A stretch of 64,000 nt of DNA from Escherichia coli (GTDB taxonomy: Bacteria > Pseudomonadota > Gammaproteobacteria > Enterobacterales > Enterobacteriaceae): assembly GCF_965641715.1 (NCBI RefSeq), contig NZ_OZ282453.1; one strand, 5' to 3'. Within the stretch, counting starts at the first letter, position 1. Every line of letters begins with the position of its first letter. Under the pieces are notes generated by a model. It was not told where the DNA came from and searched no databases. It was given only the letters and a program-made list of their open reading frames with translations. The position numbers and the translations under genes are program-made. Shown one piece after another: positions 1 to 20,351 of the stretch.

Positions 1-186
1 GCAGTAACACAGCCCAAAAATACCGTTGAACAAAGTCTTCTTGATCAGGTACTCATTTCAGAAAAAAACATATATACCGTTAATGGTTATGGCACTGATA
101 GTGATGTTCTGCAAGCCATGATTTCTGCTAAAATTGATAACAATGAATACCTTAAGCAATACGATATCAGCAAAAAGAAGGTATAG
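1..186 (+). CDS. 3' end of an unknown ORF (5' end outside window), AT-rich
   Basis: Open frame 1 from the window edge to TAG at 184-186; the next ORF starts 4 nt later. Confidence 0.3.
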   Translation, partial: AVTQPKNTVEQSLLDQVLISEKNIYTVNGYGTDSDVLQAMISAKIDNNEYLKQYDISKKKV

Positions 187-189
187 GAT

Positions 190-633
190 ATGTTATTGAA
201 ATACTTAAGAAACCTGATTGTAAGTGTTTTTTGCACCTTGTTCCTACTGAGGTATATCCCTCAGATGGGGCATGCTGACATACTTACAGCCTCCGGGGTT
301 ATTTCAACTGTATCCGGTATTTTATTTGGTTTTATTTTAGCCACAATATCAATTTTTAGTGCTGCTAGCGAAAACTCAAATGGAATAATAAAAGCATTAA
401 AAAACAACAACATACTTCAAGTTATTATTGTAAATCTATTAACCGCAGGTGCATCTTTAATTACGGCATGCGTTATTGCTTTGATAGCAATGTTTGCCAA
501 TGAAAAGACATTGTTACATGGAGAAAAAATAGAATTTATTTTAATTATCGAATCTTTATCTCTTCTTATCATTTCAGTAATAACTTTTGCCTTTACATGG
601 AGAAAAGTAAACTGGATACTCCCCCACATTTAA
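190..633 (+). CDS. Small hydrophobic membrane protein (about 4 predicted TM segments), AT-rich cargo gene
   Basis: 147-aa ORF with hydrophobic stretches; low GC; convergent with the Q-like gene. Confidence 0.45.
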   Translation: MLLKYLRNLIVSVFCTLFLLRYIPQMGHADILTASGVISTVSGILFGFILATISIFSAASENSNGIIKALKNNNILQVIIVNLLTAGASLITACVIALIAMFANEKTLLHGEKIEFILIIESLSLLIISVITFAFTWRKVNWILPHI

Positions 634-656
634 AAAGGGCAGAAATGCCCTTTTTT
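634..656. terminator. Rho-independent terminator hairpin between convergent genes
   Basis: GGGCA-GAAA-TGCCC stem-loop followed by TTTTTT, immediately after the TAA stop at 631-633. Confidence 0.5.
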
Positions 657-1034
657 CTACTCCATTTCAAGTTTAACATCCAGCATTGAAAGGCATCCAT
701 CAATAAACCCTTCAGCCATCTGTATCTCTATACGTATCAATTTCTCATCTTTTTTGCGAGCTCTTGCAAGCTTTCTTTTCGAGATGCCATACAGGTAATG
801 GGCCACAATCAAAGAATGCTCGTACGGTTTTCGCTTTTTAAGAAGAGCAAGACAACCTTCAATAATTAATGCATCACTATCTGAACAAGCCTGACGTGTT
901 TTGCTTGTATAGGGAAGAAGCCCTTTAAACCCAGCAGCTATAGGAGAATAGTCTACTCCTGAACTATCACTCGCCGCCCATGCTCCCCAACGATCCAGAA
1001 CCATTTGAATATCACGCATCAACTTTCTCCACAA
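657..1034 (-). CDS. Phage antitermination protein Q family
   Basis: 125 aa; N-terminus MRDIQMVLDRWGAWAA and cysteine-rich middle match recalled prophage Q-like antiterminators. Confidence 0.55.
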   Translation of the reverse strand: MWRKLMRDIQMVLDRWGAWAASDSSGVDYSPIAAGFKGLLPYTSKTRQACSDSDALIIEGCLALLKKRKPYEHSLIVAHYLYGISKRKLARARKKDEKLIRIEIQMAEGFIDGCLSMLDVKLEME

Positions 1035-10076: not shown

Positions 10077-10429
10077 ATGTTTTCGAAATGGAAGGGTTTC
10101 TTCGCGGGAAATGTGTACCGCGAGATCTGAAAGTGAACGAAACAAATGCTGAGTACCTGGTACGTAAATTCGACGCGCTTGAAGCTAAATGTGCGGCACT
10201 GGAAAACAAAATAATACCAGTGTCAACTGAACTGCCACCAGCAAATGAAAGTGTTCTGTTATTTGATGCTAATGGAGAAGGCTGGCTGATTGGCTGGCGT
10301 TCTCTCTGGTACACCTGGGGACAAAAAGAAACCGGAGAATGGCAGTGGACATTTCAGGTCGGGGACCTTGAAAACTTCAATATCACTCACTGGGCAGTAA
10401 TGCCCAAAGCGCCGGAGGCTGGAGCATAA
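10067..10429 (+). CDS. YfdS-like phage protein
   Basis: 120 aa; overlaps neighbours by 10 nt and 1 nt, suggesting coupled translation. Confidence 0.4.
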   Translation: MRMNVFEMEGFLRGKCVPRDLKVNETNAEYLVRKFDALEAKCAALENKIIPVSTELPPANESVLLFDANGEGWLIGWRSLWYTWGQKETGEWQWTFQVGDLENFNITHWAVMPKAPEAGA

Positions 10430-11049
10430 TGACCACATTTACCAATAAAGAACTGATTAAAGAAATCAAAGAACGAATCAGCAGCCTAGAGGTTCGAGAC
10501 GATATTGAGCGCCGTGCTTATGAAATTGCTCTGGCATCGCTGGAAGAGGAGCCGGTGGCATGGCTGCATTCAGACAATGGCTTAGGTATTCCGGCAATAA
10601 CCAGGAGCAAAAACATTGCTGACAGTTGGTTATCAATGGGCTGGTATGTTCAGCCGCTATATATAGCCAAGCCAGTACTGGTGGTGCCAGATGCTCGTCC
10701 GTCTTTAAATAATGGCATAGTCGGTTTTGATGAAGGCTGGAACGCCTGCCGCGCCACCATGCTTCATGGTGCCAAACCTGTAAGCCAGACTTACAAGTTG
10801 AACAAGCTGCCGGGCAACTCTCCGGTAACTCAGGATGGTTGGATAAGCTGTAGTGAGCGAATGCCGAACGATAAACAGTATGTTTGGTGTTGGGGTAAGT
10901 CTTACGGCTGGACTGAGTGCGATACCTTCGAAGGGTATTACGATTGGTCGAGAAACAAATGGTGGGCAGTTACTGACGATGGGGAAGAACCGGCATCGAA
11001 AGTAACCCACTGGATGCCGCTACCGGAGCCACCGCAGGAGGTGAAGTAA
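10429..11049 (+). CDS. Phage protein with DUF551-like C-terminus (YfdT-like)
   Basis: 206 aa; C-terminal WWAVTDDGEEPASKVTHWMPLPEPP resembles DUF551. Confidence 0.4.
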   Translation: MTTFTNKELIKEIKERISSLEVRDDIERRAYEIALASLEEEPVAWLHSDNGLGIPAITRSKNIADSWLSMGWYVQPLYIAKPVLVVPDARPSLNNGIVGFDEGWNACRATMLHGAKPVSQTYKLNKLPGNSPVTQDGWISCSERMPNDKQYVWCWGKSYGWTECDTFEGYYDWSRNKWWAVTDDGEEPASKVTHWMPLPEPPQEVK

Positions 11050-11445: not shown

Positions 11446-14400
11446 TCACACGCTGCGCCTTCGAGAATATTCATTTAATCGCTGATAACGAACATCTTGC
11501 TCCAGTTGTGGAGCAGCTTGAACAATTTGAAGCAAGCATTGCCCCAACTCTCGAGGCCCCCAGTGTTGTTCGGCAATCACGGCATTCAGCAGGGATAGAG
11601 CGTCCGCAGGATATCGGCTGCAAATATCTGATTCTAGCAAAAGGCGAACGTCGTAGCTAAGGTGTTCGAGCGGTTGCAGCCAGTCCTGCACCACTGCCAA
11701 AGCCGCCGGAAATTCACCTCGGGCAGCAATCACCATACGAGTCAACGATTCGGATATGCGTGGGGTGGCCAAGTTGCGGGACTTTGGCCAAACCTGTTGC
11801 CAAAATGGCTGGACACGATTTTTCCAATACTCCTCGCGCTGATCGCCCGCACCTTCAAGTGCCTGGTATAACGCCTGCGCGGCTACCTCCAGACCTTCTT
11901 GTGGAAGAGCACTAATTGCCGTTCGGAACTCCTCCACGGTATATCCCTCGGTAGGGCCCAGAGCTGCATAAGTCAGGAAAATAGCGAATTGCTGCCGGTG
12001 CTCGCCAAGATCAGAATAGTGATTGGCGCTCTCCAAAAAATCTGACTTGAAAGCTATCAGCAACGGTTCATACAGGCGTGGCGACCAGAGGAAGCCTTCC
12101 CACACAGCTTTTGCTTCGACGGGATTACTCCAAGCAAACAAGGGCAATAGATACTGTTCGGTCCAAGGTCGATCTACGCGAAAAAATGCGATCAGCCGCG
12201 ACCCCAGCAACACCCGACCATGGCGGAATAGCTCTATCTGTACATTACACAATTTGGTGAAAAGTGTTTTCAATTCAACAGGAAGCAAATCATTGTCATT
12301 CGGGTTCTGTTTGAACCATAGGGTGATCAGTGATTGCGTGACATGCCCAATGGGATGATTGATCGCCGTAGAAACAGGATCATAGGTCTCAATTCCGTTT
12401 CGAATGGTGCTAGACTCTGGGCTTGTTTCTATCATCAGAACCCGACGACAAAGGGCCAGTAGAATCTCCTCGTGGCAGAGGATGGTCTTCGAAGCCTCCT
12501 CCATCCACCAAGTGACAGCGTGGGAAATCTCCTGAAGTACTGCGTCAGGCATGTCAAGCACCAACGGTGCGGCGTACCGCCACGAACGCAAAATCATCCC
12601 TGGTTCAGCCCAAGTCTGCAGAGCTTCACGCCACCGACCAACAGGCCACACATCATCTTGTGATAGTTTACGTAACGCATACAGACTGTGAAAAAAGCGC
12701 GTACGGCAAACATCACTCCAAGTGTCCTCATAGAAAGGCAGTCTTTCTGGCATAGGCTTTGCGAGCCATTGCACTAATTCCTGCCACTTACGGGGCGCAA
12801 TGTCGACATCTATACTCTCCTCGAAGCCTGGATCACCGGTTCCGCTCATCCAGTGAGAGAATTCATCACGCTCGTTGGTTGCCAGTTGCCATTTTGGGTA
12901 TGCTGTGGATATTTCCGTCAAACGTGTAGCCGCAGACTCTCCCAAAACAAGGCCCGCTCCCCTGAGCTTCTCTAGACACAACCAGACGGAATGAGCCACC
13001 AAATAATGCCACCTGTCTGCTTCCAAATTATCCTCGTACATCTCGCGCGGAGGCCCTGCCAAGATAGCAGTTTCCAGACGCTCTTGTGCAATTCCTGTCA
13101 GATGTCGTCCCTGCAAAACAAACAGTCTGAATACCTCTCGCCGAGTATCCGTGGCCCACAACCACCATGAACCGTCCTCTAACAACCAATTAACCCACCG
13201 CTCAGGTGGTATGCAGTTGTCTTGGCTTGCGGCAAACAGTGCCAGACGTTTGAAGGTGGGATATGGCAACTCAAACCAATTCTGAGCAATGCGCGAGGCC
13301 TGATCGCTGTCTTTGGCTCGAACGGCTAACCATGAATCCCGAAGTAATTCAATCAGGCTCACCCAATCGCGGAACCCCCGGTTCTGCCAGTGCGGAGTGA
13401 TGGACGGCAAATCCCAATGCGAGCGGTCGTGACGATCGTCGGACTCTCCCAACTCCCGCAACAAGTCCAGTGCATCACGCAACAACTGCTGAAAATCTTC
13501 CAACAGGTATGGCAAGGACGATTTCCATGACTCGTCAGCAAGGTCGAACAGGGTTGAACGTACGTAATCAGCAGTCAGCACCAGCTCCCAATCCACCAAT
13601 TGCTTGATTCGCAAGGGTTCATCAGTGCTGCTCGAATCGTCTTCACTATAGCGAAACGGCCGCCTCAACATAACCTTGGGAGAAAGCAACTCGCGTAACT
13701 CCAAGCGCAATGTAGTCGTCAAGCCTTCATTCTTTAAGCGGTTTTGCCAACGATACAAATCCAGGTTCTGCAATGGCGATTTCACACGACCACTAAGCAG
13801 AAGCCGCCATAAAGTAGACATAGGTGGACCAGGAATAGCCAGGGGGGAATGCAAGAGAATTTCATCTAACTCAGAAGTCTTACGCTCCCGCATCAGTGCT
13901 GCTAAGCGATCTAGTTCGCTCTCAATCAGAAACATCCAACGGTCGTGTATTTGTCCGCCGCGTTCAGCAATCCATATGATCAACCTAGGGTCGCCCAGAT
14001 AACGAACTAGCCAACGGGCTATATGGGACATTACGTCATCCCATTTGCTAGCACTGACACATCCAGAAACCAGCGACATCTGCGGGGCCAGCTCATAGGG
14101 CGCAGGACGCTGAACCAGACTGAATCGGAGTTTCGGGTCAATTTCGACATGCGGAGATACACAAAAGCGTGGCAGATCGCTGTATTTAAATCGTTCGTCC
14201 GAGAAAGCTTTCAATAACCAATCCAGCGGCGGTGCAGGATTGAGTTCCGCAAAGCGTTTTGCTGGTAAACCTGATTTATCTGACAAGGCCCACAACATCC
14301 GACCAACGAAATCGTCCTGACGAGTGCTGTCCTGCGGGCGGGCCAGAGCATGTTTGACGACTATAGCCTCTTTGCCCTGTATACCATCTCGATAAGTATC

Positions 14401-15273
14401 TGCCCAAGCGTGCAACGTTTGATGCAGCACTGAATGATCAGTGGAGCTCGCCGGTACGGTGTAAAGGATAGGAGTGACCCCTTTGGCCTCCCACTCGATG
14501 GCTTTCCGGTGCTCCTGCCCCGGCTCACACTCCCCCAGTGCCCATACTTGTGGTGTGACTTCACCGAGCCTCCGATCTGCTGCAAGCGCATCCATCATGT
14601 AGCGCAGTACCGGGTCGTTGATGCTGTAGCCAACGAAGCAGACCACATAGTTACGAAATAACTCACTCACAAAGCGAGCTGCCCAACGCTCAGTGAGATA
14701 AGCCAAGCCAAAGTCACCGCTGGTAACAACCAGACGATTCAGGGCAGTATCATCCGCCTTTTCCGGTAACAGCCCATGCAGGTATACAAGTCCATCCCAG
14801 CGGCTGTTTTTTGGAATTGGCAGCATCGGCGCTACATAGGCCTGAAAAGCCTGGCCTGTACGTTTAGCTGCCACATGAAAGAGACGGTCAAAGTTGGTAG
14901 TGACCAATCGAAGGGCACCCTCGCGGCTACGGGCTAAACGTAACAGCGCCGCCTGAGTATCAATAGCGCCCCTACGACGGAGCTTTGGCTTAAGGGCTTT
15001 TTCCAACGCGCGTCGGACGGCTATACGCTGCCCTGGTAAGCGCCGTTCCAGCAAATCTAATGTGCCGTCAAATTGCCCACGCTCGAAAACCTCACGCTCA
15101 ATTTCTGAAAGTGTTGTTCCGTTCCTCTGGTAAATTAGTTCTACCAACCCTTTGAAACCAGGTAAACCAGCAGGGTAGGAAATGCCTGCTCCACAGAAGA
15201 ACACAACGCGCCCTTCCTCGTGCGCCTGCAAAAGCTCATCAGGAATATCAGGGCCGTTGGTAATGAATTGCAT
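11446..15273 (-). CDS. Large SIR2-like domain protein (N-terminal SIR2-type NADase-like domain plus about 1000-aa C-terminal domain of unknown function); candidate anti-phage defence protein
   Basis: 1275-aa ORF; N-terminal motifs VVFFCGAGISYPAGLP, VTTNFDRL, VYLHG, VCFVGYSINDP; no P-loop seen downstream; sits between xis-like and int. Confidence 0.6.
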   Translation of the reverse strand: MQFITNGPDIPDELLQAHEEGRVVFFCGAGISYPAGLPGFKGLVELIYQRNGTTLSEIEREVFERGQFDGTLDLLERRLPGQRIAVRRALEKALKPKLRRRGAIDTQAALLRLARSREGALRLVTTNFDRLFHVAAKRTGQAFQAYVAPMLPIPKNSRWDGLVYLHGLLPEKADDTALNRLVVTSGDFGLAYLTERWAARFVSELFRNYVVCFVGYSINDPVLRYMMDALAADRRLGEVTPQVWALGECEPGQEHRKAIEWEAKGVTPILYTVPASSTDHSVLHQTLHAWADTYRDGIQGKEAIVVKHALARPQDSTRQDDFVGRMLWALSDKSGLPAKRFAELNPAPPLDWLLKAFSDERFKYSDLPRFCVSPHVEIDPKLRFSLVQRPAPYELAPQMSLVSGCVSASKWDDVMSHIARWLVRYLGDPRLIIWIAERGGQIHDRWMFLIESELDRLAALMRERKTSELDEILLHSPLAIPGPPMSTLWRLLLSGRVKSPLQNLDLYRWQNRLKNEGLTTTLRLELRELLSPKVMLRRPFRYSEDDSSSTDEPLRIKQLVDWELVLTADYVRSTLFDLADESWKSSLPYLLEDFQQLLRDALDLLRELGESDDRHDRSHWDLPSITPHWQNRGFRDWVSLIELLRDSWLAVRAKDSDQASRIAQNWFELPYPTFKRLALFAASQDNCIPPERWVNWLLEDGSWWLWATDTRREVFRLFVLQGRHLTGIAQERLETAILAGPPREMYEDNLEADRWHYLVAHSVWLCLEKLRGAGLVLGESAATRLTEISTAYPKWQLATNERDEFSHWMSGTGDPGFEESIDVDIAPRKWQELVQWLAKPMPERLPFYEDTWSDVCRTRFFHSLYALRKLSQDDVWPVGRWREALQTWAEPGMILRSWRYAAPLVLDMPDAVLQEISHAVTWWMEEASKTILCHEEILLALCRRVLMIETSPESSTIRNGIETYDPVSTAINHPIGHVTQSLITLWFKQNPNDNDLLPVELKTLFTKLCNVQIELFRHGRVLLGSRLIAFFRVDRPWTEQYLLPLFAWSNPVEAKAVWEGFLWSPRLYEPLLIAFKSDFLESANHYSDLGEHRQQFAIFLTYAALGPTEGYTVEEFRTAISALPQEGLEVAAQALYQALEGAGDQREEYWKNRVQPFWQQVWPKSRNLATPRISESLTRMVIAARGEFPAALAVVQDWLQPLEHLSYDVRLLLESDICSRYPADALSLLNAVIAEQHWGPRELGQCLLQIVQAAPQLEQDVRYQRLNEYSRRRSV

Positions 15274-15455: not shown

Positions 15456-16679
15456 TCATTTCGAGCCTGAACGAGTACAAGTAACAATCGATTCAACTCT
15501 CTCCCACCATGCCTGGTAGGCTTTACGCTGTTCTTCTAGATAATCACTCTTGTCATAAACTTGCCATACACCTGGCAGTTTATGACCGAGCATTATTTCA
15601 GCAATATGAGGCGCAGTAAGATCAGAAAAGTTTGTTCGTGCTGTTCGTCTCAAATCATGAAGAGACCAATGAGGAAATTGATACCCCAAACGCCGCCATG
15701 CGTACTGCATTAAATTGTAAGGCAGCGACTGCAATGATGTCCGACCAACTGGTTCCCTGCTTCCTTCCTTAGTAAAAAGCATATCGGAACCGTTGTTCAT
15801 AGAGATAACGTATTTTATAAGCTCTTCAACCGGTTCAATAATGGGCCGCTTTAGCGGTTTGCCTGTTATATCCCCTGTCTTATGTCGTTCTGGTGGTACA
15901 GTCCATATTTTATTAATGAAATCAAAATCGTCCACCTTGGCAGTAATTAGCTCTGAACTACGGCAACCAAAATGCAGCAATAGTTTAATGAAGGCCCGGT
16001 ATTTAGGAACCATTCGAGAACCATCGATCGCAGCATAAAGGATTTTAATTTCATCATGTGTCAGAAACCGTTTCTTCTGACCTTTACGGATATCCATATC
16101 TTTACCCGTGATATCCGACAGCGGGCGAGTTTCAATGAGCTTTCTCTTATACGCCCAGACATGGGCCTGCTTTGCGTTAATTAGCAATCGGTCTGCTATT
16201 GCTGGAGTCTTAGTGCTAAGAGGCTCCAGGACTTCTAACCAATCATGCAATGTAGCTGCATCGTGAGGGATATTCCCGATTTTAGAGAACAGGTGCAGCT
16301 CAAACGAGCGGAGTATCTGTTCAGAACCTTTTTTATTTTTTACACAATATGCTTCATACCAAGCACGGATCACAGATTCTACCGTCATGGCTTCAGTAGC
16401 TTTACGTTTTTCTGCCAGCTTGACCAATCGTGGATTGCGGTTTGACTCGAGTTCACCACGAAGACGGATAACTTCTTCTCTGGCCTCTTTTAGTCCAGTT
16501 GCCGGGTAAGTTCCGATATCAAGACGCTCACCTTTCCCCGCCCACTGATAACGATATTGGAACACTACGCGACCTTTCGGTGATACTCTAACAGACAGAC
16601 CATCACGATCGGATTTAACCAAAACCTTATCACGTTCCTTTCCAACGACTGAACGCAACCACGCATCAGACAGCGCCAT
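15456..16679 (-). CDS. int: Tyrosine recombinase / phage integrase with N-terminal arm-binding domain
   Basis: 407 aa; N-terminus typical of P4/CP4-57-like integrases; catalytic region with HDLRRT and LGHK motifs. Confidence 0.85.
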   Translation of the reverse strand: MALSDAWLRSVVGKERDKVLVKSDRDGLSVRVSPKGRVVFQYRYQWAGKGERLDIGTYPATGLKEAREEVIRLRGELESNRNPRLVKLAEKRKATEAMTVESVIRAWYEAYCVKNKKGSEQILRSFELHLFSKIGNIPHDAATLHDWLEVLEPLSTKTPAIADRLLINAKQAHVWAYKRKLIETRPLSDITGKDMDIRKGQKKRFLTHDEIKILYAAIDGSRMVPKYRAFIKLLLHFGCRSSELITAKVDDFDFINKIWTVPPERHKTGDITGKPLKRPIIEPVEELIKYVISMNNGSDMLFTKEGSREPVGRTSLQSLPYNLMQYAWRRLGYQFPHWSLHDLRRTARTNFSDLTAPHIAEIMLGHKLPGVWQVYDKSDYLEEQRKAYQAWWERVESIVTCTRSGSK

Positions 16680-17064: not shown

Positions 17065-17742
17065 TCAGTGTTTACACAGGAGCTGCTCCAGTTCGTGCAA
17101 CGAAGAAACGGTCCAGGTGGGCGCGATGCCTTCTGGTTGCTCGCGATTGTGCGCATTCAGCCAGCAGGTCGCAAGCCCGGCGTTGATGCCACCGAGAATA
17201 TCGGACTCGGCAGTGTCGCCAACCATCAGCACGCGTGAACGGTCAGGATTGCCCGCCTGTTCCAGCGCATAATCGAAAATTTTCTTATTCGGTTTGGCAA
17301 CGCCAACTTCTTCGGAAATCACCAGCAAATCGAAGTAATCACGCAGGCCCGTCCGTTCCAGACGCACTTGCTGCAAGGCACTAAAACCGTTGGTGATGAT
17401 GCCGATTTTGGCGTTGCCACGAATGGCGTTAAGCAGAGAAACCGCGCCCGGCAGCGGCGTGCAGATTTCCGCCATCGCATTAATAAAGGCTTCGTTGAGT
17501 TTACCCGGCTCGACGTTCAGCCGTTCGGCCCAGCTCTCAAACCGCCCGTGCTGAAGCTGTAATGAAGTGATCGCGCCGTTTTGATAATCCACCCACAGTG
17601 GCTTGTTAACGGCCTGATAGTCCTGAAAATCTTCAGCGGTAAAGGTGACGCTGTAATCAAGAAACATCCGCTGCAGGCCGGTGAATGAGTCAAAGGTAAA
17701 CAGCGTTTCATCGGCATCAAAGAAAATCCAGTCCCACTTCAT
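17065..17742 (-). CDS. yjjG: HAD-family pyrimidine 5'-nucleotidase YjjG
   Basis: 225 aa; starts [15 protein letters not shown] (HAD motif I DxD); matches recalled K-12 YjjG and gene order. Confidence 0.85.
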
Positions 17743-17756
17743 TATTCCACCTTGTC

Positions 17757-18203
17757 TTACATACTGATTGGCAACGCCATGATGATGGCGTCTTCGCGAC
17801 CGTCCGTGGTGGGGTAGTAATTGCGGCGAATCGTCGCCTCGTTAAAGCCTAAACTTTCGTACAGGGCAATGGCGGCAGCATTTGAGGCACGGACTTCCAG
17901 CCATAGTGTCGCCACGCCGCGTTTTTCCAGTTCGTCGATCAGATGTTCCAGTAGCGCCCTTCCCAATCCCTGACGCTGATAGTCAGGATCGACCGCAATA
18001 TTGAACAATGTAGCTTCATCCAGCACCACTTGCGTAATCGCAAACGCCGCCATTTTGCCGTTTTGCGTTAACTGAAAGTTGAGATAACGCTCGCCCTGGT
18101 TGCTGGCAAAGGTTTTTTCACTCCACGGAAAGGCGTGGGCGCGTTGTTCAATGTGGTAAGCCGCTGGTAAATCAGTCGTTTCGAGGGAAGAAATCGTGTT
18201 CAT
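17757..18203 (-). CDS. rimI: Ribosomal protein S18 alanine N-acetyltransferase RimI
   Basis: 148 aa GNAT-fold protein ([13 protein letters not shown]); position between holD and yjjG. Confidence 0.85.
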
Positions 18204-18585
18204 ATGTGCAAATTTGTTGCCATAACGCGGCGCGTGCCGTTGGGTTTGCCCGTAAATCGGTGAGCGCCGGTGATGCCACCTGAGCGCCTTCCAGTGATAG
18301 CGGTTCGTCAGTACCCAACCGCCAGCTGTTGCAGCGACTGCCTTGCGGCAGCATCGCGATTTTTTCTGGCGTCAGTTGCAGCACCTGGTCGGGGCTGACG
18401 GTTAATGCGCGCAGAACATCGCTCACTAAAGGATCAGTCAGGGCGGGAAGATCGTTTGCCACCATCACCAGACGGACGTGTGCCGGGATCGCAATGGCAA
18501 TCTCCCCCTGCAACGCGCCAGGGCGACGCAGCGACCACTGGGTAATGCCCAGTTGCTGTAACTGCCAGTCTCGTCGGGATGTCAT
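18172..18585 (-). CDS. holD: DNA polymerase III psi subunit HolD
   Basis: 137 aa starting MTSRRDWQLQQLGITQW; overlaps rimI as in K-12. Confidence 0.8.
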   Translation of the reverse strand: MTSRRDWQLQQLGITQWSLRRPGALQGEIAIAIPAHVRLVMVANDLPALTDPLVSDVLRALTVSPDQVLQLTPEKIAMLPQGSRCNSWRLGTDEPLSLEGAQVASPALTDLRANPTARAALWQQICTYEHDFFPRND

Positions 18586-18687
18586 AGCGAATCGCTCCTG
18601 TTGTCAGGGGCGCAAATATAGCAAATTCGTCGATACCGCGCCAACATATGGCTATAATCGCCGCCAGTATCAATTGAGGAGCATTCC

Positions 18688-19719
18688 ATGTCTGCATTTA
18701 CCCCGGCAAGTGAAGTCTTGCTGCGTCACAGTGATGATTTCGAACAAAGCCGTATTCTGTTTGCCGGAGACTTACAGGATGACCTGCCCGCGCGTTTAGA
18801 TACCGCGGCCAGCCGTGCTCATACCCAGCAATTCCACCACTGGCAGGTATTAAGCCGCCAGATGGGGGATAACGCCCGTTTCAGTCTGGTCGCTACGGCG
18901 GATGACGTCGCAGATTGCGATACTTTGATTTACTACTGGCCGAAGAACAAACCGGAAGCCCAGTTCCAGTTGATGAATTTACTTTCTCTGCTGCCAGTGG
19001 GGACAGATATTTTTGTCGTTGGCGAGAACCGCAGCGGCGTGCGCAGCGCCGAGCAGATGCTGGCAGATTATGCGCCGTTGAATAAAGTCGACAGCGCTCG
19101 TCGCTGTGGACTCTATTTTGGTCGTCTGGAAAAACAGCCAGTATTTGATGCGGAGAAATTCTGGGGCGAATACAGCGTCGATGGCCTGACGGTCAAAACG
19201 CTGCCTGGCGTGTTTAGCCGCGACGGTCTGGATGTCGGTAGCCAGTTGCTGCTCTCGACGTTAACTCCGCACACGAAAGGTAAAGTGCTGGATGTCGGCT
19301 GTGGCGCGGGTGTGCTTTCAGTTGCCTTTGCGCGCCATTCGCCGAAAATTCGTCTCACCTTGTGCGATGTCTCTGCCCCGGCGGTAGAAGCCAGCCGCGC
19401 AACACTTGCGGCCAACGGTGTTGAAGGTGAAGTCTTTGCCAGCAACGTCTTTTCCGAGGTGAAAGGTCGTTTTGATATGATCATCTCCAACCCGCCGTTC
19501 CACGATGGGATGCAAACCAGCCTGGATGCGGCGCAAACGCTGATTCGCGGCGCGGTGCGTCATCTTAATAGCGGCGGCGAGCTGCGAATTGTAGCGAACG
19601 CCTTCCTGCCTTACCCGGACGTGCTGGATGAGACATTTGGCTTCCACGAAGTGATCGCGCAAACAGGGCGATTCAAGGTATATCGCGCCATTATGACCCG
19701 CCAGGCGAAGAAAGGTTAA
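18688..19719 (+). CDS. rsmC: 16S rRNA (guanine1207-N2)-methyltransferase RsmC
   Basis: 343 aa; SAM-methyltransferase motif [12 protein letters not shown] and NPPFH motif. Confidence 0.85.
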
Positions 19720-19735
19720 GTATCTGATATCTGTC

Positions 19736-19905
<170 letters not shown>

Positions 19906-20028
19906 TAGTCTCCTGATGGACATTTTTCCAGCAATTACACATCAGGCGATAATTAACTATTGACGAAAAGCTGAAAACCACTAGAATGCGCCTCCGTGGT
20001 AGCAATTCTTTTTAAGAATTGATGGTAT

Positions 20029-20115
20029 GCGAAGGTGGCGGAATTGGTAGACGCGCTAGCTTCAGGTGTTAGTGTCCTTACGGACGTGGGGGTTCAAGTC
20101 CCCCCCCTCGCACCA
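20029..20115 (+). tRNA. leuQ: tRNA-Leu (anticodon CAG)
   Basis: 87-nt sequence GCGAAGGTGGCGGAATTGGTAGACGCG ... CCCTCGCACCA; anticodon loop CTTCAGGTG. Confidence 0.9.
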
Positions 20116-20143
20116 AAAACCACGTTGATATTGCTCGCACTGG

Positions 20144-20230
20144 GCGAAGGTGGCGGAATTGGTAGACGCGCTAGCTTCAGGTGTTAGTGTTCTTACGGAC
20201 GTGGGGGTTCAAGTCCCCCCCCTCGCACCA
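20144..20230 (+). tRNA. leuP: tRNA-Leu (anticodon CAG), one substitution relative to the flanking copies
   Basis: 87-nt copy; variable-arm difference GTGTTCTTACGG versus GTGTCCTTACGG. Confidence 0.9.
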
Positions 20231-20264
20231 AACGAGGCGATATCAAAAAAAGTAAGATGACTGT

Positions 20265-20351
20265 GCGAAGGTGGCGGAATTGGTAGACGCGCTAGCTTCA
20301 GGTGTTAGTGTCCTTACGGACGTGGGGGTTCAAGTCCCCCCCCTCGCACCA
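20265..20351 (+). tRNA. leuV: tRNA-Leu (anticodon CAG)
   Basis: 87-nt copy identical to the first. Confidence 0.9.

Follow-up and report, generated by a model that had tools for sequence, protein, structure and literature searches.

A candidate divergent RexAB-like gene pair carried as convergent cargo downstream of Q in lambdoid prophages of Escherichia coli

To our knowledge, Rex is the oldest known abortive-infection system, and we know of no account that settles what triggers it or how its channel works. A paper from 2026 counts only five Rex-like systems as described. Here we report on a two-gene cassette whose distal end occupies positions 1-656 of a 64,000-nucleotide (nt) stretch of DNA from Escherichia coli (RefSeq assembly GCF_965641715.1, contig NZ_OZ282453.1; the whole analysed stretch is called the window hereafter). 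The cassette lies next to the Q antiterminator gene of a lambdoid prophage, and its two products, a protein of the uncharacterised family DUF6731 and a small membrane protein, are candidates for a far-diverged counterpart of RexA and RexB of phage lambda.

As with lambda RexA/RexB, the cassette consists of two adjacent genes on the same strand, the first for a predicted soluble and the second for a membrane protein, which are prophage-borne and tightly linked. The sizes of the products are close to those in lambda (313 and 147 amino acids (aa) here, 279 and 144 aa there), and the membrane partner is predicted to have four transmembrane helices. In contrast to what membership of a sequence family would give, the likeness is seen only at the level of profile-profile and structural comparison. 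The setting differs too: the pair lies between Q and the late region, convergent with Q and with a terminator of its own, whereas the lambda genes lie in the immunity operon behind cI; and it is AT-rich cargo, found in only ~0.4% of complete E. coli genomes.

A structurally RexA-like pair that follows a cI-like repressor in prophage P1 of Pseudomonas putida, RexABpp (PP_5643/PP_5644), has been shown experimentally to act in defence, with overproduction of its RexA triggering RexB-dependent membrane damage (PMC12894663). RexABpp resembles our pair in having as partner a four-helix membrane protein for which homology searches found no relationship to RexB; it differs in that RexBpp is longer, with at least 181 residues judging by the listed mutants, and lies near the cI-like repressor. 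The Rex-like systems of actinobacteriophages (Sbash gp30/gp31, CarolAnn gp44/gp43 and Butters gp30/gp31) likewise join a prophage-expressed soluble protein to a four-helix membrane protein, of which the central cytoplasmic loop is the conserved, functional part, and their position relative to the repressor varies. In contrast to our pair, their soluble partners are larger (337-372 aa), their hosts are Actinobacteria, and a DUF4747 motif reported as common to them and RexA was not detected here.

A cargo cassette between Q and the late region

Within the window, the end of the cassette and its junction with Q comprise the following features.

1-186, + strand: 3' end of the rexA-like gene (the last 61 codons and a TAG); frame 1 is open from base 1, with the TAG at 184-186
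175-181, + strand: Shine-Dalgarno-like AAGAAGG, read from the sequence, within the end of the upstream gene and 8 nt 5' of the membrane-protein ATG
190-633, + strand: rexB-like gene for a 147-aa predicted inner-membrane protein with four transmembrane helices (open reading frame (ORF), hydropathy, phrog_8552, AlphaFold)
632-655, either strand: predicted bidirectional intrinsic terminator with a 10-bp stem (AAAAAGGGCA/TGCCCTTTTT) and a GAAA loop (folding and shuffle controls)
657-1034, - strand: Q antiterminator gene, PF06530 (Pfam match, annotation in relatives), part of the phage backbone and not of the cargo

The membrane-protein ORF runs for 147 codons from an ATG at 190 to a TAA at 631-633, leaving a spacer of 3 nt between the stop of the larger gene and its start. 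This gap is short in nearly all homologous loci and turns into an overlap in the most distant ones; together with the Shine-Dalgarno-like site, it is consistent with a single operon with coupled translation. On the far side, the 23-nt gap between the convergent stop codons is taken up by the hairpin AAAAAGGGCA-GAAA-TGCCCTTTTT, with a folding energy of -13.4 kcal/mol for the + strand (z -3.9, equalled by 0 of 200 shuffles) and -13.0 kcal/mol for the - strand (z -1.6, equalled by 15 of 200). The hairpin is flanked by A5 and, at its opposite end, by T6, and so can be read as a terminator in either direction. A consensus terminator scan of the window did not call it, probably because the A and T runs can pair and thereby use up the T tail. 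The stop of Q follows at 657-659 on the - strand; the product matches Phage_antitermQ (PF06530, E 5e-52, Pfam), and RefSeq places its start at 1022 (121 aa).

GC content is 0.35 over 1-186 and 0.32 over 190-633, compared with 0.56 in the DUF968 gene, 0.50 in the whole window and 50-58% over most of the early region nearby, and GC at third codon positions (GC3) is 0.29-0.32 in the pair versus 0.57 in the DUF968 gene. Q itself is AT-rich (GC 0.42, GC3 0.34), with the genes upstream of it at ~0.55 GC, so composition does not change abruptly at the Q stop and the low-GC tract reaches into the backbone. The larger protein matches phrog_7651 (E 1e-151) and the membrane protein matches phrog_8552 (E 1e-63, residues 1-147); given these matches and dozens of diverged homologues, both ORFs are real genes and not chance ORFs. 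A preliminary description of this DNA, made from the letters alone, had reported an AT-rich pair composed of a truncated ORF ending at 186 and a translationally coupled 147-aa polytopic membrane ORF, with a hairpin and T-run terminator directly after the Q stop. All of these elements were recovered where it had placed them, with the hairpin (632-655) folding on both strands, composition (GC and GC3 low relative to the DUF968 gene, GC also relative to the window) bears out its view of an AT-rich pair, and homology (PHROG families and diverged homologues of both ORFs) shows the pair to be conserved.

Over positions 1-1100 the window shares 99.9% identity with 24 complete E. coli genomes, most of them from pig isolates. 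The truncated ORF is found complete in K_EC180 and EC416, as a 942-bp gene (313 aa) of the RefSeq DUF6731 family with the membrane-protein gene next to it, and judging by such relatives the full rexA-like gene would start ~755 bp left of the window. The full-length 313-aa protein analysed below was taken from a relative that is 99.9% identical over the DNA overlapping the window. EC416 is the closest relative, with 98.5% identity over 9 kb of the window, and carries leftward beyond the pair a 67-aa ORF, a DNA methyltransferase gene, tRNA-Ile, tRNA-Arg, holins, endolysin and terminase. In phage cdtI, which we take to be an inducible CDT-I-converting lambdoid phage, orf54/orf53 are an identical pair, again with methyltransferase, holin, endolysin and Rz genes beyond. 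As EC416 and cdtI both retain late genes beyond the cassette, it does not mark a late-region deletion, one of two origins that the preliminary description had proposed; its statement that the element continues beyond the window agrees with these relatives, the upstream ORF being the 942-bp DUF6731 gene there and lysis and late genes following in EC416.

The other proposed origin, inserted cargo, is upheld. More than 400 E. coli genomes share the early region of the window, mostly without the pair, and for most of the matches listed the homology sets in only at the Q stop (window 651-679). An empty site is present in E. coli O158:H23 (strain CFIAFB20140388), where the Q stop directly abuts a conserved block, TTAGCGCGGTCCGCAAA...GTTAAGAGTGGTTACTTTGCCACACAGCTTAAACCCGCCGATGAGCGGGTTTTTT. 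In EC416, in cdtI, in a second cassette allele and in strain F8 this block is found beyond the cargo, as it is, in more diverged form, in a Pectobacterium prophage. Other cargo was found in this slot: strain F8 carries an unrelated 248-aa convergent gene (locus L002, 5209-5955, + strand), the N-terminal half of whose product matches the PADLOC candidate PDC-M68A and HNH-endonuclease effector models, and GF47/EC13 carry an unrelated 339-aa convergent gene without a family match (locus L102, 2948-3967, + strand). Of 31 distinct cassette variants, 29 have a stable hairpin, unrelated in sequence, at the place of the 632-655 hairpin, which is itself absent from the empty site and so travels with the cassette. 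What is inserted, exactly between the Q stop and the ~90-nt conserved block, is a ~1.6-kb AT-rich two-gene cargo cassette with its own terminator.

In these respects the cassette resembles the lambdoid morons (bor, lom, stx), each an AT-rich, independently terminated unit between backbone genes that is present or absent among similar prophages: we find presence/absence polymorphism at a fixed site, deviant GC and an own terminator, with the promoter as yet presumed. It differs from them in standing right after the Q stop, upstream of the post-Q block, and in opposing late transcription, whereas stx sits further downstream, within the late transcript. The analogy that the preliminary description had drawn with the Shiga-toxin region holds only loosely: the slot is close to Q and upstream of the methyltransferase and tRNA genes, and its cargo opposes late transcription. 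As a candidate in its own right, a toxin moron or cargo of the Shiga-toxin type was rejected, given the lack of toxin domains, the orientation against late transcription and the location on the Q side of the methyltransferase/tRNA module; a holin or lysis gene was likewise rejected, the pair being on the wrong strand and giving no holin family match.

The ~90-nt post-Q block, seen in two loci outside the window (L104, 3865-3955, - strand; L003, 7090-7175, - strand), ends in a terminator-like hairpin. Consensus scans found no promoter in it, including no late promoter, and Rfam returned only sub-threshold, terminator-driven matches (isrK at 16 bits, ErsA at 21 bits). Our guess is that the block could be a late promoter/short-RNA/terminator unit, resembling pR'/tR', for this type of Q.

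Pairing, spread and likeness to RexA and RexB

We surveyed 93 loci carrying the larger gene (a scan of viral contigs gave 80 loci), with partners detected by tblastn. A partner was detectable immediately downstream in 91 of them, and the remaining two have in that place a hydrophobic ORF of 144 or 152 aa that overlaps the end of the larger gene. The loci span E. coli alleles of 100, 87, 82, 62 and 44% identity, along with Pectobacterium, Vibrio and metagenomes, and in 81 of the 93 the pair is convergent with a PF06530 Q gene at the junction of Q and the late region. As a whole the family is small, at 230 clusters of 50% identity among 1.84 billion proteins. The pair is kept together across Enterobacterales, Vibrio, Pseudomonas phages and metagenomes, and appears on this comparative evidence to be a unit of selection. 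In Pseudomonas phage AUS531phi (P. aeruginosa), the DUF6731 gene and a membrane partner directly follow an S24-type cI repressor, which is the cI-rexA-rexB layout of lambda and the same cI-adjacent arrangement as that of RexABpp.

The pair was also observed in Vibrio element 10N.286.54.F4_PE001 (locus L098, 1389-2896), at 38-39% identity and adjoining the integrase of a 14.6-kb Vinavirales (tectivirus-like) element, and in a Vibrio chromosomal island near a resolvase (loci L008/L009, 6001-7478). Occurrence in lambdoid prophages, a Vinavirales element and a Vibrio island indicates that the cassette has moved between very different mobile elements.

Among complete E. coli genomes, the allele of the window is found in 24 of 5426 (~0.4%) and the 44%-identity allele in 73 of 5426, each being at least 99% identical internally. 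In one allele the cassette proteins are 44% and 50% identical to ours, compared with 88% for the adjacent Q. Cassette proteins far more diverged than the neighbouring Q, alleles that are discrete and rare, and a slot that can hold other cargo, including the gene with the PDC-M68A match, would make up a defence-like population pattern, a point in favour of a Rex-like role.

The full-length larger protein matches Pfam PF20505 (DUF6731) at 41.4 bits against a gathering cut-off of 27; the 61-aa fragment inside the window gave no Pfam match by itself. Scans of the larger protein, the membrane protein and sets of homologues with Pfam, NCBIfam and PADLOC returned the DUF6731 match and noise only, a PDB sequence search with the family profile returned nothing meaningful, and a literature search on DUF6731 and PF20505 found no papers mentioning either. 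Current defence-gene databases do not recognise the pair.

Structural modelling predicts the larger protein to be soluble and to adopt a RexA-type fold, its globular domain being split by the insertion of a dimerisation domain. Among structural matches RexA ranks first by a wide margin, and the order of elements in the model fits the published RexA architecture, in which a split globular domain is interrupted by a dimerisation domain. The fold class is also common to RdgC and the kinetochore CENP-N/Chl4 proteins, at lower scores; an RdgC orthologue was considered as a candidate and rejected, as the protein falls outside the RdgC family. In a profile-profile comparison, 80 DUF6731 sequences aligned colinearly with 26 RexA sequences over 218 columns (E 1.7e-3, probability 15%), with a score reached by none of 60 column shuffles, and the alignment takes in the best-conserved motif of the family (NHLGPKxxDL, facing FGPTTSDL in RexA). 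With lambda RexA alone as the target, hhalign gave a very weak result for the DUF6731 family (probability 0.7%) and still found the GPxxSDL motif.

The membrane partner has hydrophobic segments at approximately residues 1-20, 31-61, 74-109 and 112-137, and AlphaFold models it as four long helices (pLDDT 86). Against an alignment of four RexB proteins, hhalign gave a probability of 34% (E 4e-4) for the partner family and of 79% (E 1.6e-5) for the most distant partner subfamily, the match running from helix 2 through the central loop to helix 3; none of 150 column shuffles reached these scores. A plain hidden Markov model (HMM) of the partner family gave 3.9 bits against lambda RexB, too weak to count alone. 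A structural search of BFVD returned, as one best match, the neighbour of the larger protein's own top match in the same uncultured phage, and as the second-best a 165-aa protein of Mycobacterium phage Sbash, possibly gp31. Sbash gp30/gp31 is a published Rex-like defence in which mutations in the central loop of gp31 abolish defence (PMC6426596).

A possible exclusion module and its alternatives

Considering the RexA-type fold, the colinear profiles of both partners, the pairing, the cI-adjacent layout in AUS531phi and the defence-like population pattern together, we propose that the cassette is probably a very divergent relative of the lambda RexA/RexB abortive-infection system, expressed in the lysogen. 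By analogy with lambda Rex, Sbash, CarolAnn and P. putida RexABpp, the pair would be transcribed rightwards in the lysogen from a promoter beyond the window, within the AT-rich DNA that precedes the larger gene, and its transcription would end at the 632-655 hairpin, which would also shield the pair from antisense extension of early phage transcripts that leave Q. Coupled translation would set the ratio of the two proteins, to which Rex systems have been found sensitive in published work. When another phage infects, the RexA-like protein, expected to be a DNA-binding dimer, would sense a phage product or a DNA-protein intermediate and activate the membrane protein, which would then form a channel or otherwise damage the membrane. 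Membrane potential and ATP would be lost, growth would arrest and the infection would be aborted.

Several results weigh against this proposal. The larger protein and 36 homologues gave no match to PF15969 or PADLOC RexA at E up to 1-10, and the partner none to PF15968 or PADLOC RexB with hmmscan at permissive thresholds, under conditions in which the lambda proteins, as positive controls, matched the Pfam and PADLOC RexA/RexB models strongly. Profile-profile probabilities are low for the larger protein (15%) and for the partner family as a whole (34%), and shuffles that keep blocks of 12-15 columns reached the score of the larger protein in 4 of 60 trials and those of the partner in 2 of 150 and 1 of 150. 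A four-helix membrane bundle is a generic shape. Consensus scans identified no promoter for the cassette, which is located outside the immunity region, apart from the repressor transcript, and across the DUF6731 family expression, DNA binding, protein interaction and phage exclusion are so far predictions. As published Rex-like systems vary in position, however, a cI-adjacent location is typical and not strictly defining.

The failure of sequence-level Rex membership would be expected if the pair served superinfection exclusion or some other membrane function unrelated to Rex, such as a block to DNA entry or a receptor change brought about by the membrane protein, with the larger protein as an accessory and the RexA likeness going back only to an ancient DNA-binding fold common to both. 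Small membrane exclusion proteins are frequent among the products of prophage morons, and RdgC and CENP-N/Chl4 share the fold class, albeit at lower scores. We consider this explanation improbable, since RexA leads the structural matches by a wide margin, each partner is independently colinear with its Rex counterpart, and gene order, sizes and the cI-adjacent layout in the Pseudomonas phage all match Rex. Similarly improbable is a reversal of roles as in mycobacteriophage Butters gp30/gp31, in which the soluble protein would act as a toxic effector, sequestered by its membrane partner until infection releases it. Such a logic has been described for one Rex-like system (Butters, as summarised in PMC12894663), and our sequence data would fit either partner as effector; against it, the membrane protein is the effector in four of the five described Rex-like systems (PMC12894663), the best-conserved part of our partner is the helix 2-loop-helix 3 core that aligns with RexB, and Pfam, family-model and PDB-sequence searches found no nuclease or other enzymatic motif or domain in the larger protein.

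The pair may instead serve the prophage's own cycle, with the RexA-like protein binding DNA non-specifically to tune the lysis-lysogeny switch or late expression and the membrane protein modulating host proteolysis or energetics. Lambda offers precedents: RexA influences the bistable switch without needing RexB, and RexB is active in ways of its own (PMC11077077), the reported effects being stabilisation of the switch by RexA and inhibition of ClpXP/ClpAP degradation by RexB. The location of the cassette at a regulatory junction, between Q and a conserved block containing a terminator, would suit such a role. We nevertheless judge it unlikely as the main function, as many close prophages work without the pair or with unrelated cargo, which makes it dispensable for the phage cycle, and strict pairing together with divergence faster than that of Q is more in keeping with a conflict system; a role of this kind could also coexist with defence, as in lambda. 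It is far less probable that the cassette is a decaying or functionless hitch-hiker. The function of the pair is predicted only, and AT-rich genes might be silenced, but both genes retain intact reading frames here and in almost every one of the 93 loci, over identities from 100% to ~20%, and the maintenance of invariant residues and conserved spacing points to purifying selection.

Prophage context and wider meaning

The same prophage carries, at its other end, a 1274-aa ORF (window 11446-15273, - strand) that matches PADLOC Dsr1, a defence-associated sirtuin, end to end (2729 bits); we counted its presence toward the defence-like pattern that favours the RexAB-like proposal. Dsr1 is flanked by a DUF551 gene (10429-11049) and the prophage integrase gene (15456-16679). 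This interval is filled differently in related prophages (a STAS-like domain protein, hypotheticals), so there appears to be a second variable slot for cargo next to the integrase. Rightward of the prophage, window 17065-20351 holds the host genes yjjG, rimI, holD and rsmC and then a tandem array of three tRNA-Leu(CAG) genes (20029-20351). These flanks put the prophage at prfC-yjjG, the site also occupied in EC416 and K_EC180. In K_EC180 (locus L001, 1896-3795 and 13223-14073) the related prophage has a SLATT-domain gene and a reverse-transcriptase gene near its far end. Immediately left of the cassette it carries a split (frameshifted) AraC-family regulator gene and a tRNA-Gly, and its late region looks rearranged relative to that of EC416.

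A broader proposal, which we put forward as speculation and hold to be rather doubtful as a whole, is that DUF6731 proteins and their four-helix partners may form a large unrecognised branch of Rex on unrelated mobile elements (tailed phages of Enterobacterales and Pseudomonas, the Vinavirales element of Vibrio), with a dedicated slot between Q and the post-Q block in lambdoid prophages. In this slot, antiterminated lytic read-through, antisense across the pair, could shut the system off on induction and so spare the prophage's own lytic growth.

If the RexAB-like proposal is correct, E. coli's lambdoid prophages, including phage cdtI, would harbour a second Rex lineage that looks unrelated in sequence to the first. 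Natural alleles at 100%, 87%, 62% and 44% identity could then be used to map trigger specificity and the coupling between soluble and membrane protein, and a functional label would become available for Pfam DUF6731 and for PHROGs 7651 and 8552. It would also expose a blind spot in the Rex models of Pfam and PADLOC v2.0.0, and the post-Q site would join the prophage cargo slots worth mining.
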